A DNA stretch of 64,000 nucleotides from Methanocellales archaeon (GCA_030019435.1 JASEEV010000001.1:28064-92063); one strand, 5' to 3'. Counted from the first letter of the stretch, positions 8,985-50,000 are shown. The notes: generated from the letters alone by a model not told the origin. Program-made: numbers and translations.

Positions 8985-9084
8985 TGCGGCTGCCGGGATT
9001 CGAACCCGGGCTTCAAGCTCGCTCCGAAACCTTTTCTAAAAGTTTCTTGGGAAGCTTGAGTCCTAACCACTGGACCACAGCCGC
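8985..9084 (-). tRNA. tRNA-Gly (anticodon CCC) with a canonical-position intron of about 28 nt
   Basis: Reverse complement folds as a tRNA. Acceptor GCGGCUG/CAGCCGC; D-stem GUCC/GGAC; anticodon stem CAAGC/GCUUG with loop UUCCCA|intron|A; T-arm CCGGG-UUCGAAU-CCCGG; discriminator A. Exons sum to about 72 nt. Confidence 0.65.
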
Positions 9085-42967: not shown

Positions 42968-43453
42968 ATGAAGAAAAGAGAGCGAAGACCTTGGAAGGAC
43001 ATATTCGGAGACTTGGACGAGGTAATAGAGCGAATGTTTGAGTCCATGGACATGGATGAGATGAGAATTAGACCGTTTGTCTACGGATTCTCGCTAACGC
43101 AACGACCCGGCGAGGAGCCTGAGATTCGAGAGTTCGGAAACATACGCCCATCCACCCGTGGTTTCGAAGTAGGCGAGAGAAAGCCGATCATCGATGTGTT
43201 TGAATCAGAGGATGAAGTTCATGTGGTGGCAGAGATGCCCGGCGTTGAGAAAGAGGATATCAAACTAGATGCAACCGAGACCTCGCTGGAAATTCATGCC
43301 AAGACCGAAAGTAGGGAATACTCCGAGCATGTCGATCTTCCCGTAAGCGTGGACCCAGACAGTGCAAAAGCCAGCTACAAGAATGGCGTTCTAGAGGTAA
43401 CTCTCAAGCAAACCAAGCCCGAAAAAAAGCAGACCTCGGTCAAAGTGGAGTAA
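42968..43453 (+). CDS. hsp20: Small heat shock protein (Hsp20/alpha-crystallin)
   Basis: Alpha-crystallin domain motifs (VDVFESEDEVHVVAEMPGV, LEVTLKQTKPE). Confidence 0.85.
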   Translation: MKKRERRPWKDIFGDLDEVIERMFESMDMDEMRIRPFVYGFSLTQRPGEEPEIREFGNIRPSTRGFEVGERKPIIDVFESEDEVHVVAEMPGVEKEDIKLDATETSLEIHAKTESREYSEHVDLPVSVDPDSAKASYKNGVLEVTLKQTKPEKKQTSVKVE

Positions 43454-43484
43454 ACCTCCACCTTCTTTTTGTATCAAATCCGCA

Positions 43485-44048
43485 CTAGTAGTAGAACTGA
43501 TACAGACCTAGGGGTGAGCCGAGCACAAATAATTTCCTTGGCCTGTGGCTGAGTCGCACAACCTTCTGAAAGAGCTCTACTTCACGGTATCTGTATACCC
43601 TCTTCTTTTCATTCTCCCTGGCGTATATCTTGTGTAGCACCTCGCCCTCATGAAGACCCTTAGCCAACAGCGAGAGAACGACCAACACAACAAGTTCATC
43701 TGCATTCCAATTACTGTAGAGCGTTCCGTTTTGCGAGTAGAGAAAAACGGAGCCAGACATCTTTCCAGGAATCCATCCGCCCGAGGGTTGAAATTTCGTA
43801 TGTCTTATACAGACATCCACATTTGGCAGCTTAGCTAAGATACGTTGCCCTTCTTGAGTTGATGCCCACTCCTCGCTATAATCGACGAAAAAGTACGCTT
43901 CAAAATCACCATCTTTAGTTAGAGCCACGTTCTCCCTGATCAAATCATTAAGCTCATACTTTTCATCCATCCCCACCCAGGAGCAACGAACATTATGTTG
44001 CGTCGCATACTGATTTAATGGAGGAAAGCCTGCAGCTACAACGTCCAA
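43485..44048 (-). CDS. Hypothetical protein (187 aa), last gene of the Roadblock/V4R operon
   Basis: ORF overlapping the upstream gene by 13 nt; no motif recognised. Confidence 0.35.
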   Translation of the reverse strand: MDVVAAGFPPLNQYATQHNVRCSWVGMDEKYELNDLIRENVALTKDGDFEAYFFVDYSEEWASTQEGQRILAKLPNVDVCIRHTKFQPSGGWIPGKMSGSVFLYSQNGTLYSNWNADELVVLVVLSLLAKGLHEGEVLHKIYARENEKKRVYRYREVELFQKVVRLSHRPRKLFVLGSPLGLYQFYY

Positions 44049-44410
44049 GATACGGTCAAACTCTTTTTGACCCTTTCACGATTGTATGAAGTGTGGAGCA
44101 TACAAAGACATGCTTTCGCACCCAAGGCACGCAGCGTGTGGATCAACTCGATGGCATAAAGGATTCCGTCCACACGCTCATCTATACCAGGTTTTGATGT
44201 AAGAGTTGAACGAGTTCCATCCAAAATATCGTATATGGTCAAACCTTCGAGAGCTTTGTATGCCTCTTGTGCGCCAATATCAATATCGACCCCTTCGGAG
44301 AGCATGTTCCAAACGTTATGAAAACATTCTCTTATTACCGATGCTGTGACGAAAAGTTTGTCAAAGTCGTACTTTTTGTTATCCCCTTGAGGCTGTGAAT
44401 CATGATTCAT
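44036..44410 (-). CDS. Hypothetical protein (124 aa)
   Basis: ORF; its start overlaps the upstream gene's stop by 4 nt. Confidence 0.35.
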   Translation of the reverse strand: MNHDSQPQGDNKKYDFDKLFVTASVIRECFHNVWNMLSEGVDIDIGAQEAYKALEGLTIYDILDGTRSTLTSKPGIDERVDGILYAIELIHTLRALGAKACLCMLHTSYNRERVKKSLTVSWTL

Positions 44411-45561
44411 TCTTTCCTGAACACAAACCTACACTCCTTTCCGTCAAATATGTCCGAGATCTTCTCGACTGCATAGCCATGCTTAGAACCAAGCGTTCCT
44501 ATCTGACTCTGGCACATCGCACAACTCGATGCCTTAAAGTGCTCTTCCACTGCCTCTGGTCCGATGAGGAAATGATACTTGTCTCGCTTTTTAGCCATGT
44601 GAAGCATATTCTCAGCCATGAGACATCTGTGTATGGTAAAGCAATCTTTTTGGAAGGTTGCAGGCAAGTCTAAACTAGCTGAGTAGACTGCAAGTAACTT
44701 CTCCAGAGTGCCCATATCTCGTTCATCCCAACCGATGTATAGTGGGGGCATACCACTCAGCGCTATCTCCATGACCGAGGCTCCAACTTCTCGGCAATAG
44801 CGTCCGACTAGTTCCTTCCCAATAATCGCCGAGGCGTTCACGATGATGGCACTAGTCAGAGTCCCCAAGACATCGTTTGCTGCCCCTACTGCATAGTCGA
44901 TGAATGCTTTGCATTGCTCTTCCTCATCCAAATATTCTTTGCCACCGACCAAACTGGCTAGGCCAGCTATTTCGTGCATTAATTTTGGGAGAAGCTCTTG
45001 GTTTTTGATCAGGTGCTTCATTACTTGCTCTGCGCTAATGGTCTTTGCTATGTGATAGTCGACACCCAACTGTTCCTTTCCCTCATGGAACTGATAGGTG
45101 CACTTTTCACCACCAGTGAGTACGTAGCTTGTTCTCTCAACCGCTCCGCTGGAGAAGTAGTTTGTCCACCCCACTGTGTAGCCCCTGCAAATTTCGCAGA
45201 TCAGCTCTGACCCAGATTGCAGGACGAACAAGCCGTAGGGGCACATCAAAGTGTCCCAGGAGTATTTACCACGTTTTTTATACGCTTGGGAGGGGTTTCT
45301 GATCAGAGTGCTGTTGATCTTCACGAAGTATGGAATTCCGTCTTCATCCTCAGGTATGCCAAAGTCTCTTACATACTTCTCTGCCGCATGCAAAGCCGGT
45401 CCCCTACTACACAGAAATAAAGGTGCAACCGCACCGGTCATGGTAAGCTTGGCCCCAAAAGACGCCAGATTATTTCCCCTGATCAACACTGCATGCTTCC
45501 AGGCGTCTTCTCGAGAATATCCAATTTCAGATGCAAGTCCCCTCAGATCATCTTTTCTCAT
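44407..45561 (-). CDS. V4R-domain-containing protein (384 aa, Cys-rich)
   Basis: ELICEICRGYTVGW ... GGEKCTYQF matches the V4R (4-vinyl reductase) CxxxxGxxxG / GxxxCxF pattern. Additional CPYG and CAMC motifs. Confidence 0.45.
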   Translation of the reverse strand: MRKDDLRGLASEIGYSREDAWKHAVLIRGNNLASFGAKLTMTGAVAPLFLCSRGPALHAAEKYVRDFGIPEDEDGIPYFVKINSTLIRNPSQAYKKRGKYSWDTLMCPYGLFVLQSGSELICEICRGYTVGWTNYFSSGAVERTSYVLTGGEKCTYQFHEGKEQLGVDYHIAKTISAEQVMKHLIKNQELLPKLMHEIAGLASLVGGKEYLDEEEQCKAFIDYAVGAANDVLGTLTSAIIVNASAIIGKELVGRYCREVGASVMEIALSGMPPLYIGWDERDMGTLEKLLAVYSASLDLPATFQKDCFTIHRCLMAENMLHMAKKRDKYHFLIGPEAVEEHFKASSCAMCQSQIGTLGSKHGYAVEKISDIFDGKECRFVFRKE

Positions 45562-45570
45562 TTCTTCGCC

Positions 45571-45942
45571 TCACAGCACCTCTTTGATTTTCTCAGCAGC
45601 TTTCCCCATCTCCACGAGGTGCAGACCGAGTCTAGCATAAGGACTTATTATCGCTATGAGCAGTGCCTTGGATCCAGCACCAGTTGTGATCACCTTGCCC
45701 TCCTTGGATTCCACGATGACCCGATCTGGAATCTCCCCCAGCTCGCTGATGGCAGTTTCTGCTGCGCCTAGCATCGTCGCATTCATAGCCGCAAAGGTCT
45801 CTGCACGTGTCCCAGGGGGAACATCAGAAGCCATGATCAGCCCGTCTCGTGAGATGAGCGCAGATGCTCTGATGCCCCCAACTTGTTTTAGATCGCTCAG
45901 CACTTTGTTTAGCATCTCTGCGGTTGTCGACATTTTATTCAC
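45571..45942 (-). CDS. Roadblock/LC7 (MglB-like) domain protein
   Basis: 123 aa with the Roadblock core (GIRASALISRDGLIMASD). Confidence 0.75.
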   Translation of the reverse strand: MNKMSTTAEMLNKVLSDLKQVGGIRASALISRDGLIMASDVPPGTRAETFAAMNATMLGAAETAISELGEIPDRVIVESKEGKVITTGAGSKALLIAIISPYARLGLHLVEMGKAAEKIKEVL

Positions 45943-46139
45943 TCATGTAGATCACTTTCGCCTTGGAACGAAATTGTGTGTTATAATGTAGCTCATTCTA
46001 AGATTTTTCTTATTTATAGGCTTCGCTTTACAAATAAAAGAAAGGGAGACTATATGTATTGTGGTATGTCATAGCCTAACTCCATCAATTATTTAAAAGA
46101 CTAACAGTTAATTCAGGGTAAGAGTAAAACGACGAAAAT

Positions 46140-46340
46140 ATGGTCACAAACATGAAAAAGAAATTTAAGATACTTGGAAGCGCTAAGGTTAGCACGAGAT
46201 ACCAACTGGTAATTCCAAAGGATATAAGAGAAAGGATAGACTTAGACAAGCGTGGCACGGTCATTTTTCTAGAAGACGAAAAGGGAAATATCATCATAAA
46301 TAAAAGTCCTCTGAACGTTGTTATAGAAAAGGAAGATTAA
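46140..46340 (+). CDS. AbrB/SpoVT-family small DNA-binding protein (solo)
   Basis: YQLVIPKDIRERIDLDKRGTVIF swapped-hairpin motif; 66 aa; AT-rich surroundings. Confidence 0.55.
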   Translation: MVTNMKKKFKILGSAKVSTRYQLVIPKDIRERIDLDKRGTVIFLEDEKGNIIINKSPLNVVIEKED

Positions 46341-46394
46341 GATTCTCCTGCCTAAACCCCTTCTTTTTACAAGTAGTACCACCATGCTCGGTAA

Positions 46395-46592
46395 TAGCGG
46401 GGAGTGGATTTGAACCACTGATCTACGGGTCTCTCACCGAGGAAAACGTAGTTTTCCGATGACCCTTTTTCTTGGGGGTTTCGAGAAGACAGAAACCTTT
46501 AGGTTTCTAGGCACAGGAAATCTTCGATTTCCGTGGGGCGACGCCCCTTTGGCTATGAGCCCGTCGGGATCTCCTGACTACCCCACCCCGCT
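46395..46592 (-). tRNA. Initiator tRNA-Met (CAU) with an intron of about 123 nt at the canonical position
   Basis: Acceptor AGCGGGG/CCCCGCU with A1:U72, U8, GG in D-loop, anticodon stem ACGGG/CCCGU (three G:C pairs), loop CUCAUA|intron|A, variable AGAUC, T-arm AGUGG-UUCAAAU-CCACU, discriminator A. Intron 46431-46553. Confidence 0.7.
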
Positions 46593-46598
46593 GCAAAA

Positions 46599-46919
46599 TT
46601 ATTTTACTTTCTCTCGCTTGCTCAACGTCGCTTGGATGGCATCCAGCAACTCGTCTTCTGTCTTGCCTTCCGTCTCGATTCCAAGTTCTTCTGCCATCTT
46701 CTTTATCTTGCTCTCCTTTTCCTCTACAGTGGTGCCCTCCAGAGATCGCTCGAGCTTCTTCAGGTCAAGCTCTGCTTCTCTCTGCGCCTTCTTGAACTCG
46801 CCCATCGACTTGCCCATGGATTTCGCTAGTTCTGGCAGTTTTGCCGCTCCAAAGAGCAGGAGTATGACCGCAAATATGAGCAGGATCTCATTCGTTCCTA
46901 GTCCTAACATGTTTATCAC
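46599..46919 (-). CDS. tatA: Sec-independent translocase protein TatA/E
   Basis: N-terminal TM helix plus amphipathic helix ([34 protein letters not shown]). Confidence 0.8.
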
Positions 46920-47273: not shown

Positions 47274-48608
47274 TTAAGGATTTTTGCCCAAAATGAATTC
47301 CATGACCTTGCGCTTCTTTTCCCTTGCCCTCTCTGCTGCCTCATCCACTTTGGTTTGCATCTGAGAGAGCTTAACACCAGGAAATTCGCCCACAACCTTC
47401 TTGATGGGCGTGTACGCGGACTCTCTGAACTTTGGAGTTAATTCATGGCGCTTACCATTTTTGATGAGCACGGCACCAGATCCCTTTTCGATGTGTCCAA
47501 CTGGTGCTATCGAAATGCCGTGCTTGCGCAGCACTTTCAGCACATCTTCTGCCACATTTTGAGGTGTAATGATCAGAAGCGCATCCAATGAAACGCCTAG
47601 ATAATCGATGTCCAACTCATCCAGCATGCTGAGCACAGTTGGATTGACCAATGAGCGGATTTTCTCCTCAACAAAAACGAGTTTTACTCCAGCGATCTTC
47701 GAGATCTCGGTTGCATCGCCTCTAATACCGCCATTGGTGATATCGGTCATCGCATGTATCTTGCCCACCATCTCGCTATCGAACAACACCTTGCATGCAT
47801 CCAAAAACCTCGTATTTATGGTTTCCCTAACGACGTTTGGCTTCCCAAAATAAAGGGCAGTTGTAGATATCGTTCCACCACCAGCTCCCTCTGTCATCAA
47901 GATTATGTCATTGGGCTGTGCACCTTTCCGAGCGGTCAGCACAGATGCAATGCCCACCGCGCCAACACACCCAGTCATTCTATCGCCAATAACCATGTCT
48001 CCTCCAATGCGGAGTGTGCTTCCCGTGACCAGTGGGACGCCGACGAGCTCTGATACAGCAGCGATGCCAGCAGTGTAATCGAATATCTTGGCAACATCTC
48101 CATCATCCGCCAAATGAACGTCAGAAAAAAGTGCAACAGGGCGGGCGCCCATGACATAGATATCACGCAGTGCAGCCCTGGTCACATGAAATCCTGCCAG
48201 AAACGGGAAATCACTTAAGCGAGAGTGCATTCCATCGACCGTCACCACAACATATTTGCCATCGACAGAAACGACACCGGAATCATCCAGTTGGGTGGAG
48301 TCGATCAAAGCACTTGTATCTCCGATGATCTCAGCAATTTTTTGATGAGCGTAAAAATCTCCATGGCCACGTGAACCAATGCCGAACTCCCCCATCGTAA
48401 CACCTGAGGCTAAGAATGATATTAGGTCATCATCAGGATGCAACGTTGCCTTTGCTTCCTCCAGAACGGCTTTAGCAAGGATATGGGCTTTGCTCCTAGA
48501 TATGCTCTTGATATCGAGAATGCGGTCTGTTAACTTGCGCACGATCGTATCATGGTCCTCACCCCTGCGCAGAGCGCGCTTGACATAGCCCTCAAGATCC
48601 ATCAACAC
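47274..48608 (-). CDS. AIR-synthase-related (PurM/HypE/ThiL superfamily) protein with N-terminal extension of about 95 aa
   Basis: PurM-like N-domain (DDSGVV..., GMHS) and C-domain; 444 aa. Divergent from the hydrogenase operon, so a maturation role (HypE-like) is possible but unproven. Confidence 0.55.
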   Translation of the reverse strand: MLMDLEGYVKRALRRGEDHDTIVRKLTDRILDIKSISRSKAHILAKAVLEEAKATLHPDDDLISFLASGVTMGEFGIGSRGHGDFYAHQKIAEIIGDTSALIDSTQLDDSGVVSVDGKYVVVTVDGMHSRLSDFPFLAGFHVTRAALRDIYVMGARPVALFSDVHLADDGDVAKIFDYTAGIAAVSELVGVPLVTGSTLRIGGDMVIGDRMTGCVGAVGIASVLTARKGAQPNDIILMTEGAGGGTISTTALYFGKPNVVRETINTRFLDACKVLFDSEMVGKIHAMTDITNGGIRGDATEISKIAGVKLVFVEEKIRSLVNPTVLSMLDELDIDYLGVSLDALLIITPQNVAEDVLKVLRKHGISIAPVGHIEKGSGAVLIKNGKRHELTPKFRESAYTPIKKVVGEFPGVKLSQMQTKVDEAAERAREKKRKVMEFILGKNP

Positions 48609-48890
48609 ACCTTCGTTTTTGGAACCCCCAAGTCCTTTTTGTGCACTAATGTAAACTGTGATTCACCTATATATGTTGTTATTAATTGACAGGCGCTGTT
48701 CAGTTAGGGGGCATCTTAAGATAGAATAAGCTCTATTGTGGGCGTTTAGTGATTGTCTATTTCGCTTAACTGAACACTACCAATTGACAAACAGGGTAAC
48801 ATTTTATCCATATCTAATGTGTGTGGCTCCTTGGTTGATCTGGATTACCATCTCGAAAAAACGTACCGCATGCTGTTTGGGGAGGGTGAA

Positions 48891-50000
48891 ATGAAATTCG
48901 AAAATTTGGACATATTGAAGTTGGATAGAAGGACGTTCCTCAAAGTGGCTGCAGCCATGGGCGCATCCGCTTTTCTGGGAACGTACAAGGCAGACATCGT
49001 CAGAGCGATCGCAGAGGCTGACCGAAACATCGTATGGTTGCATGGTTCGGAATGCACAGGATGCAGCATCTCGTTTTTGAACGCAGAACATCCAGACGTC
49101 ATTCAAGCAGTGACAAAGCTGAACGTCATGATCCAGTATCACGAGACCATAATGGCGCAGCAAGGTCTTTTTGTTGACGGAGCTGCGGTGAAGGATGCAG
49201 CGCTGAACGCAAACTATGCACTGGAACATTTTCTGGACAGTGGCAAGCCATTTATCCTCGTAGTAGAGGGCTGCGTTCCACAAGGTCCAGAGGGGACAGG
49301 GGACTACTGTAAAATCGCAGGAAAACCGTTCTTGGACGAGGTTAAACATGCGGCAGAAAAAGCGCTAATCACGGTAGCCATCGGCACCTGTGCCGCATAT
49401 GGGGGCATTCCTGCGACGCCGCCAAATCCAACCGATGCAGCAGGACTGCAATTCTTGAAGACCACGAAGGGAGGAGTCCTTGGAGCAGGTTACAAGTCAA
49501 AAGCAGGTCTACCAGTGATCAACATTCCAGGCTGCCCGGCACATCCAGACTGGGTGCTACTGACATTGGCAGCAGCCATTCTCGAGAAGGTTCCAGCCGA
49601 CTTTCTGGACAAATATCAGAGACCGAAACCATTCTTCCCACCAGCCTACACCATACACGAGAACTGTCCGAGAAGGGGATTCTACGATAGAGGCGAGTTG
49701 GACACCGAATATGCGGGCGGCAAATGTCTCTGGAAGCTTGGCTGTCGAGCACCAGTAACTCATTCGGACTGCCCACTCAGACTTTGGAACGATGGACATA
49801 ACATGTGCACGCAAGCAGGTGCACCTTGTATAGGATGCGTCGAGCCGATGTTCCCAGATGGGACACTCGCAGAGGAGATCGAGAAGATACCAACGCTCGT
49901 AGGCGTGGACATAAACACCATAGCCAAAGTGGCTGTCGGAGCCGCCGCGATAGGCGTTGGAGCGCATGCGGTGCGCAGAATAGCCATGAAGGAGGAATAG
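48891..50000 (+). CDS. vhoG: [NiFe] hydrogenase small subunit with Tat signal (Vho/Vht G-type)
   Basis: Start MKFENL preceded by a GGAGGGTGA RBS. Twin-arginine signal RRTFLKVAAAMGASAFLG. Fe-S Cys ligands throughout. Confidence 0.85.
   Translation: MKFENLDILKLDRRTFLKVAAAMGASAFLGTYKADIVRAIAEADRNIVWLHGSECTGCSISFLNAEHPDVIQAVTKLNVMIQYHETIMAQQGLFVDGAAVKDAALNANYALEHFLDSGKPFILVVEGCVPQGPEGTGDYCKIAGKPFLDEVKHAAEKALITVAIGTCAAYGGIPATPPNPTDAAGLQFLKTTKGGVLGAGYKSKAGLPVINIPGCPAHPDWVLLTLAAAILEKVPADFLDKYQRPKPFFPPAYTIHENCPRRGFYDRGELDTEYAGGKCLWKLGCRAPVTHSDCPLRLWNDGHNMCTQAGAPCIGCVEPMFPDGTLAEEIEKIPTLVGVDINTIAKVAVGAAAIGVGAHAVRRIAMKEE

Follow-up and report, generated by a model that had tools for sequence, protein, structure and literature searches.

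An initiator tRNA gene interrupted between positions 37 and 38

Positions 46395-46592 on the minus strand of a 64,000-nucleotide (nt) stretch of Methanocellales DNA (GCA_030019435.1, JASEEV010000001.1:28064-92063; 'the window' denotes this whole stretch) encode an initiator tRNA-Met (tRNAiMet) interrupted by a long intron. Run with its intron search on the 64-kb window, ARAGORN calls a minus-strand tRNA-Met(cat) at c[46395,46592] that reads tcata, a 123-nt intron, then acccg. The exons total 75 nt and, after splicing, are called again as tRNA-Met with a normal cloverleaf. The spliced sequence carries the traits of an initiator, namely A1:U72, the discriminator A73 and G29-31:C39-41 closing the anticodon stem (in precursor numbering, an A-U pair 1-197 and the pairs G31-C166, G32-C165 and G33-C164), and its anticodon loop, CUCAUAA, presents the anticodon CAU. 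The first-pass annotation of this DNA had read the locus as an archaeal tRNAi with A1:U72, three G:C pairs and CAU, split by an intron of about 123 nt at 37/38; ARAGORN with intron search (-i) returns exactly its coordinates and supports its exon junctions. The gene has the following parts:

46554..46592, minus strand: 5' exon, tRNA positions 1-37, 39 nt, with the anticodon at 46555-46557 (ARAGORN -i, sequence check)
46431..46553, minus strand: intron, 123 nt, between positions 37 and 38, numbered from I1 (46553) to I123 (46431) (ARAGORN -i; same position in 10 relatives)
46395..46430, minus strand: 3' exon, tRNA positions 38-73, 36 nt, CCA not encoded (ARAGORN -i, sequence check)

Default tools miss this gene because of the intron. 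Without intron search, ARAGORN reports no tRNA anywhere in the window. At the gathering threshold, the sole tRNA that Rfam reports in the window is a tRNA-Gly at 8985-9084, and a permissive Rfam scan of 46300-46700 matches a T-arm fragment of a generic tRNA and nothing else. Genomes of this lineage may thus be scored as lacking tRNAiMet. The default intron-length limit of tRNAscan-SE is close to 123 nt.

To place the gene among its relatives, we used the neighboring AIR-synthase-related (AIRS) protein (47274-48608, minus strand), which is 98-99% identical to proteins of Methanocellales metagenome-assembled genomes (MAGs), 79-83% and 73-75% identical to those of further Methanocellales MAGs, and about 65% identical to those of cultured Methanocella. 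Contigs encoding AIRS relatives, together with one metagenome scan by the exon/intron junction, yielded 10 distinct complete or partial orthologous loci. Most of these keep the gene order AIRS, two to three tatA, tRNAiMet, followed by hsp20 and cdc48, which are encoded on the other strand (L123, L126-130, L133 and L134), and in L135 and L141 additional genes separate the tRNA from hsp20. In cultured Methanocella, the AIRS gene is not syntenic with tatA and tRNAiMet; the M. paludicola genome paper reports introns in 4 of 48 tRNAs.

Every relative recovered, whether syntenic or pattern-matched, has an intron at 37/38. Its length is 27 nt in L135/L136, 123 nt in L141, 154 nt in L134, 158 nt in L138, 161 nt in L126-128, 164 nt in L123, 168 nt in L129/130, 194 nt in L133 and 197 nt in L137; the L122 contig ends within the intron, at I67. 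Archaeal tRNA introns were reviewed in 2014 as spanning 11-129 nt, with medians of 12-25 nt (PMC4090602). The window intron is indeed uncommonly long, as had been noted at first pass, and its orthologues of up to 197 nt exceed the quoted range, in the tRNA that every protein needs. The exons differ from those of the window at 0-2 of 75 positions and are under strong purifying selection, across lineages whose neighboring protein is at just 73% identity. Their sequence recurs almost unchanged in intronless tRNAiMet genes from Methanosarcinaceae, Methanohalophilus and Methanomicrobiaceae. From these observations, we conclude that the locus is a functional initiator tRNA-Met gene of an uncultured Methanocellales lineage. 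As a side observation, a Methanosarcinaceae MAG (L111), a Methanohalophilus strain (L115) and a Methanomicrobiaceae MAG (L119) each carry two tandem intronless tRNAiMet genes, 50-62 nt apart.

Splice signal and precursor folding

The precursor can pair into the canonical archaeal splice signal, the bulge-helix-bulge (BHB) with its inner and outer helices (hBHBh'). We imposed the cloverleaf and a canonical BHB on the precursor and compared this fold with the unconstrained minimum free energy (MFE) structure. The two strands of the signal are:

46551..46559, minus strand: 5' strand of the BHB, with C32, U33, C34 and A35 in the central helix, U36, A37 and G-I1 in the bulge (cut between A37 and G-I1), and C-I2 and C-I3 in the outer helix (constrained fold)
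46430..46438, minus strand: 3' strand of the BHB, with G-I116 and G-I117 in the outer helix, UGAG (I118-121) in the central helix, and A-I122, G-I123 and A38 in the bulge (cut between G-I123 and A38) (constrained fold)

All imposed pairs, of cloverleaf and BHB alike, are standard (in the central helix C32-G, U33-A, C34-G and A35-U with I118-121), so that the BHB whose prediction the first-pass annotation had suggested can form, with a 4-bp central helix and two 3-nt bulges. Helix h, the anticodon stem, has 5 bp and helix h' merely 2 bp (C-I2:G-I117 and C-I3:G-I116). Endonucleases of the Haloferax volcanii alpha2 type strictly require hBHBh' (PMC7714728). In all relatives, the 5' intron end (G/A)CC(A) is kept, and most of them retain the 3' end GG-UGAG-AG, or -GG and UGGG variants that preserve the central-helix pairing. 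The CC/GG of h' is kept as well, the exception being L134 with one C-C mismatch among the two pairs. Such conserved ends are the mark that would be expected of a spliced BHB intron selected at its splice sites only. Comparing tRNAi genes of related genomes, as had been proposed at first pass, thus finds exons and BHB strands conserved, and interiors not.

In the constrained fold, the intron interior forms four separate local hairpins, H1-H4, in one multiloop. Its energy is -71.2 kcal/mol versus -78.0 kcal/mol for the unconstrained MFE, a gap of 6.8 kcal/mol; the unconstrained structure mispairs the D-arm with intron positions I64-72. We also determined the ensemble free-energy cost of forcing the cloverleaf and BHB onto precursors with native versus shuffled interiors. 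For the window precursor this cost is 7.6 kcal/mol (shuffled, 9.3±2.7; fraction as good, 0.32), for L138 5.2 kcal/mol (shuffled, 7.7±3.0; fraction as good, 0.20) and for L129 6.6 kcal/mol (shuffled, 8.7±2.6; fraction as good, 0.22). The native interior has the lower cost in all three introns, a consistent trend that is not significant. Judged by these folding models, the hairpin array may insulate BHB folding.

Hairpin modules, their duplication and their turnover

The hairpins of the intron interior and the duplicated segment that contains the last of them are, in transcript order:

46535..46547, minus strand: H1, GGGGC-GUC-GCCCC, 5 bp, I7-19 (folding, hairpin search)
46516..46532, minus strand: H2, GGAAAUC-GAA-GAUUUCC, module copy 1, I22-38 (folding, hairpin search)
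46490..46509, minus strand: H3, U-AGAAACC-UAAA-GGUUUCU-G, module copy 2, 7 Watson-Crick pairs plus U.G, I45-64 (folding, hairpin search)
46463..46476, minus strand: weak hairpin CCC-AAGAAAAA-GGG, I78-91 (folding)
46441..46457, minus strand: H4, GGAAAAC-UAC-GUUUUCC, module copy 3, I97-113 (folding, hairpin search)
46435..46469, minus strand: segment I85-119, a diverged copy of I4-42 (46512-46550) within the intron (score 25 in local alignment, P=0.0015 versus shuffles)

Four hairpins had been listed at first pass. The stems of H2, H3 and H4 are real, and the loop then given as GUA is a plus-strand reading of what in the RNA is UAC. The fourth, written as GGGGCG-A-CGCCCC, is impossible with its 1-nt loop; the GC hairpin that does exist at this place is H1, with 5 bp and a GUC triloop. 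The hairpin content of the intron far exceeds chance: none of 5000 dinucleotide shuffles yielded three non-overlapping perfect 7-bp hairpins within 123 nt, and by the same comparison four hairpins of 5 bp or more have P=0.0002. Across the 64-kb window, perfect 7-bp hairpins amount to 34 calls in all, about 0.5 per kb, and no hairpin of the GGAAAnC type lies outside the intron. The global folding z of the intron is only moderate, at -2.2 to -2.45 versus shuffles.

In line with the first-pass annotation, which had seen no box C/D motifs, the window intron contains neither a C box (RUGAUGA, at most 1 mismatch) nor CUGA, and the same holds for the introns of L138, L123, L126, L129 and L133. L137 and L134 have one C-box-like heptamer with 1 mismatch each, and L134 one CUGA, with no properly arranged C/D pair. 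Scans of the introns against Rfam at permissive E-values match no small RNA (sRNA) or small nucleolar RNA (snoRNA) family. With no boxes and no Rfam family, we rejected a box C/D-bearing intron. A dispersed palindromic repeat of the repetitive extragenic palindrome (REP) or miniature inverted-repeat transposable element (MITE) kind was, for the window, rejected as well: no module lies outside the intron in the window, and blastn to the fetched loci matches orthologous introns only.

The repetition within the intron goes back to duplication. H2 and H4 lie in a 19-nt direct repeat with 15 of 19 positions identical (79%), and of the four differences, two lie in the loop and the other two make up a single compensated pair. 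The direct repeats D1 and D2 support the duplication of I4-42 as I85-119, and H3 aligns with both H2 and H4. Taken together, the stems of H2, H3 and H4 hold 21 of 21 Watson-Crick pairs, with two pair types at pair 1 and three at pair 6, that is three compensatory double changes and none broken. This three-module comparison indicates that the apparent design is one module duplicated twice with its pairing maintained. It is likely that some structural constraint, or a palindrome-correcting mutation process, acts on the pairing. Correction of quasi-palindromes by template switching is an established mutational mechanism, and the pairing can be kept equally by selection on the RNA or by such correction on the DNA via template switching, between which our data do not separate.

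Interiors vary from 27 to 197 nt among the relatives, and they change even between close strains. L141, at 0.4% divergence at 4-fold sites of the upstream genes, differs from the window intron at a spacer position (I44), at the base of H3 (I45 U>C, which turns U.G into C-G) and in the loop of H4 (I106, UAC to UAU). L122, at 1.3% divergence, differs in the loop of H1 (GUC to AU) and again by I45 U>C. The H1 stem is unchanged in L122 and L138, with loops of AU and UCU, respectively. All 5-6 intron differences in L141 and L122 thus either strengthen a pair or lie in a loop or spacer; stems are spared, which for so few events is suggestive. L138, whose flanks are 96% identical to the window and which has diverged by 7.9% at 4-fold sites, shares I2-33 and I58-79 with it at about 91% identity and has lost the 24 nt of I34-57. 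As a consequence, the remaining arms, 5' from H2 and 3' from H3, form one imperfect GGAAAU/GUUUCU hairpin, which is what slippage deletion between paralogous modules would give. L138 also has the flanks of the weak hairpin, CGAAACCCC..AAGGGU, in common with the window. Past I79, its 103 nt cannot be aligned with the window's 44 nt; they hold other hairpins and an internal repeat of their own, and H4 is missing. Intron divergence is at or above divergence at 4-fold sites.

The introns of the 83%-identity clade and of L134, which we call type B, have AU-rich interiors with blocks common among themselves, for example AAAGUGCUACACUCAC and ACUAUAAAAAUUAUAGU, and share with the window interior only a short CA(C/G)(A/G)GAAA(C/U) stretch. 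Because all long introns fold somewhat better than shuffles (z -1.9 to -3.9), the hairpin-rich style is general in the clade, and the sequences are not. RNAalifold on six type-B precursors finds one compensatory pair, from too few sequences to carry weight. The type-B loci (L123:7472-7710, L126:7390-7625, L129:7389-7631, L133:7388-7656, L137:70-341(-) and L134:7652-7882) have introns of 154-197 nt that are without paired C/D boxes and without an Rfam match. A block AAAGUGCUA(C/A)A(C/U)UC and an ACUAU..AUAGU hairpin persist among them even in the otherwise diverged L134. Three independent metagenome contigs of this lineage stop in or just before the tRNA intron (L122 at I67, L142 29 nt into the tRNA, and L121 in tatA), and such breaks are consistent with strain-level heterogeneity that disrupts assembly at a hypervariable spot.

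The shortest introns point to the ancestral state. The 27-nt intron of L135/L136, ACCAACUUUUUAAGAAAAGGGCGAGAG, consists of the BHB strands and a single hairpin, the same one that comes first in L134 and in every type-B intron. This suggests that a normal short intron was lengthened by insertions downstream of its first hairpin, ahead of the 3' BHB strand; in the window lineage, even the first hairpin would later have been replaced. At about 27 nt, the ancestral intron was probably of ordinary short length; under the opposite polarity, the L135 intron may have reached 27 nt by secondary deletion. The tRNA-Gly(CCC) of the window (8985-9084, minus strand) has an ordinary 28-nt intron, AGAAACUUUUAGAAAAGGUUUCGGAGCG, whose core hairpin AACUUUU-AG-AAAAGG is nearly that of L135/L136 and the type-B first hairpin (shuffle P 0.000-0.024, by partner). 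This likeness could reflect an intron family shared between tRNA genes, or convergence.

Proposed pathway, rival explanations and surroundings

We favor, with moderate confidence, the explanation that the gene yields a functional tRNAiMet through ordinary EndA/RtcB splicing at its canonical BHB, and that the interior of the intron is a non-essential, fast-evolving hairpin array with no conserved function in trans. The precursor would probably be transcribed together with the upstream tatA genes. CUCA of the anticodon loop would then pair with UGAG near the 3' end of the intron, and CC with GG, into an hBHBh' with two 3-nt bulges. EndA would cut in both bulges, and RtcB, following the established archaeal pathway, would ligate the exons and circularize the intron. 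The predicted exon-exon junction joins ...GGGCUCAUA to ACCCGUAG... (CUCAUA to ACCCGU), and the predicted back-splice junction of the intron joins ...CGGUGAGAG to GCCAAAGGGG... The 112 nt between the BHB strands would be a lineage-specific array, derived from a duplicated module of about 20-24 nt (GGAAAnC-loop-Gn'UUUCC), that keeps changing through slippage-type duplication, deletion and fusion. Only the splice-site strands and the Watson-Crick pairing within modules would be maintained, the latter through selection that favors a compact intron with local folding, or else through template switching that corrects palindromes.

Several points weigh against this explanation. The outer helix of the BHB has just two pairs, and the lowered cost of BHB formation is a trend short of significance. 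The compensatory changes keep the hairpins paired, a hint of structural constraint that could serve a function, and the close strains spare the stems. Most of the lineages sampled in the clade have kept a long intron, so that selection might act on length as such. Finally, the splicing and fate of the intron are what we infer from the pathway known in other archaea. The first-pass annotation had gone further and taken the repeated hairpin design as a sign of a functional RNA. That step is not supported: the relatives conserve the splice strands only, the interior changes as fast as neutral sites or faster, through indels, fusion and wholesale replacement, one lineage has a 27-nt intron, and internal duplication of a module explains the repetition.

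The canonical 37/38 BHB introns (Marck & Grosjean 2003, reviewed in PMC4090602) have the same position, 3-4-3 geometry and conserved splice strands. The present introns differ from them in length (123 nt in the window, 154-197 nt in its sisters), in their host, the Methanocellales tRNAiMet, and in an interior made of duplicated hairpin modules. New here are an exceptionally long, modular, canonical intron without C/D boxes in an initiator tRNA and a clade-wide, hypervariable series of its orthologues. Within less than 8% neutral divergence, the passage from 27 to 123, 158 and 197 nt shows module duplication, fusion and replacement, a clean natural case of a protein-spliced intron that grows and shrinks while the BHB strands alone stay fixed.

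A different reading, which we consider unlikely, is that the excised intron is a stable, probably circular noncoding RNA with a function of its own, for instance as a multivalent platform or sponge for a GGAAAnC-binding protein. It would then be an analogue of the box C/D RNA from the tRNA-Trp intron or of the metazoan tRNA intronic circular RNAs (tricRNAs). The three paralogous perfect hairpins with their compensatory changes, the avoidance of stems by changes between close strains and the retention of long introns in most lineages of the clade would fit this idea, as does the circularization of archaeal tRNA introns, of which the 75- and 103-nt introns of H. volcanii are detectable as circles (PMC7714728, PMC4536317). 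However, the loops vary by module and strain (GAA, UAAA, UAC/UAU, GUC/AU/UCU), the 96%-identical strain L138 has fused two hairpins and is without H4, sister lineages lack the window's hairpins entirely, one lineage is down to 27 nt, and the searches gave neither an Rfam family nor a C/D motif, nor a further copy in the window.

The known counterparts differ from the window intron in the same respects. The H. volcanii tRNA-Trp(CCA) intron (103 nt, a box C/D guide) is likewise long, canonically placed and euryarchaeal, and is excised via a BHB and circularized. Unlike it, the window intron lacks C, D, C' and D' boxes, has no match in Rfam and shows no conserved single strand of the guide type, and its interior is unconserved in close relatives. 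The tricRNAs, such as that from Drosophila CR31905 (PMC4536317), also derive from an unusually long, highly paired tRNA intron, and BHB-type cleavage and RtcB ligation would be a further common trait. By contrast with tric31905, whose structure is conserved with many covariant pairs across species (PMC4536317), the structure of the window intron turns over between strains, and covariation exists just between paralogous modules of one intron. Proof that the excised RNA is stable and has a function would make it a new counterpart of tricRNAs in archaea. We hold it quite unlikely that the clade's tRNAiMet introns (123-197 nt) form an undescribed class of trans-acting circular RNA without C/D boxes, in which the window intron would display GGAAAnC hairpins as a protein platform and the type-B introns would keep the AAAGUGCUA(C/A)A(C/U)UC block. 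Should it be so, a circular RNA released stoichiometrically with the initiator tRNA could report or tune the capacity for translation initiation.

It is rather improbable that DNA-level processes alone made the interior, be it through insertion and amplification of a palindromic element or through quasi-palindrome correction, tolerated in an unconstrained intron that may itself persist by interrupting the attachment site of integrating elements. The perfect palindromes, the internal repeats and the indels at repeat junctions speak for such processes, together with the gain and loss among close relatives of the region directly 3' of the tRNA (43453-46394) and the metagenome contigs that break off within the tRNA or its intron or a little upstream, in tatA. 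Against them, no copy of the module lies elsewhere in the 64 kb, the intron has no match in phage or plasmid collections (blastn), a scan of viral contigs for the clade-specific exon/intron junction gave 0 matches, and no duplicated tRNA 3' end (att-like) or integrase was found. This account largely overlaps the explanation we favor and differs from it mainly on RNA-level selection for pairing. An element integrated next to the tRNA with att duplication was rejected: the 3' end of the tRNA is not repeated, and the neighboring open reading frames (ORFs) encode no integrase domain.

We find it very unlikely that the intron controls the supply of tRNAiMet in cis, with folding or melting of the hairpins, or pairings with the exons, setting the rate of BHB formation and coupling initiation to temperature or growth. 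Competing folds do exist, the MFE structure with its mispaired D-arm lying 6.8 kcal/mol below the cloverleaf-plus-BHB fold; cleavage at a 2-bp outer helix could be context-sensitive; and this is the sole tRNAiMet found in the window and in the examined locus of each relative. However, the penalty for the splicing-competent fold is no different from that with shuffled interiors, and with the interior not conserved, no specific switch is conserved either. That the gene is a pseudogene or chance match, its 'intron' being intergenic DNA between tRNA-like fragments, is extremely improbable: neither default ARAGORN nor Rfam at its gathering threshold lists the gene, yet these tools fail only through the intron, the ARAGORN -i call is clean, the spliced cloverleaf is perfect, the exons show 0-2 differences in 75 positions and the BHB strands are conserved.

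Long tRNAiMet introns are uncommon but not unique. A collection scan with the pattern GGGCTCATA-N(81-141)-ACCC-N10-GGTTCRAATCC, the listed matches of which are mostly tandem bacterial fMet tRNA arrays, gives no global frequency; among the matches listed, true long tRNAiMet inserts occur only in L104 (Sulfolobales; 139 nt) and L081 (Aenigmatarchaeota; a 93-nt gap), and L111, L115 and L119 are the tandem intronless genes described above. Both have the CAU loop, the GGG/CCC stem and an insert after A37 as in the window, with unrelated sequences. L081 is not called as a tRNA by ARAGORN, and a long insert there is probable. The 139-nt intron of L104 (L104:7307-7520) is one long helix with a 14-bp closing stem, AGCACUCCUCAACG/CGUUGAGGAGUGCU, and z = -6.0, unlike the separate hairpins of the window. 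Nanoarchaeum equitans has a split tRNAiMet, interrupted at 37/38 and rejoined via a BHB-type structure. Unlike these separate halves, the window tRNAiMet halves are contiguous, with a cis intron in one gene.

Five ORFs lie in the 43453-46394 region, between the 3' end of the tRNA and hsp20. They encode a MazE/AbrB-like protein (66 amino acids), a Roadblock/LC7 protein (123 amino acids) and three proteins of 384, 124 and 187 amino acids that have no Pfam match. The region is absent in the 83%-identity relatives, in which the tRNA abuts hsp20, and L138 is without 44802-46387 and 43452-44413. A stretch just downstream of the tRNA, at 46344-46362 (GGGGUUUAGGCAGGAGAAUC), is similar to the D-arm part of the 5' exon at 46568-46584, minus strand (GGGGUAGUCAGGAGAUC). 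The similarity may be left over from a duplication of part of the tRNA, or it may be due to chance.

On the upstream side, the gene is flanked by:

46599..46919, minus strand: tatA paralogue, ending 7 nt upstream of the tRNA (Pfam TatA_B_E; same arrangement in relatives)

No TATA-like element or B recognition element (BRE) lies at usable distance of the tRNA, which suggests that the tRNA is co-transcribed with tatA and released by RNase P. The tRNA begins 7 nt past the stop of the last of two to three tandem tatA genes also in L122, L123, L126-L135 and L141. Close to the tatA genes is a [NiFe] hydrogenase operon, whose small subunit is encoded at 48819-50000.

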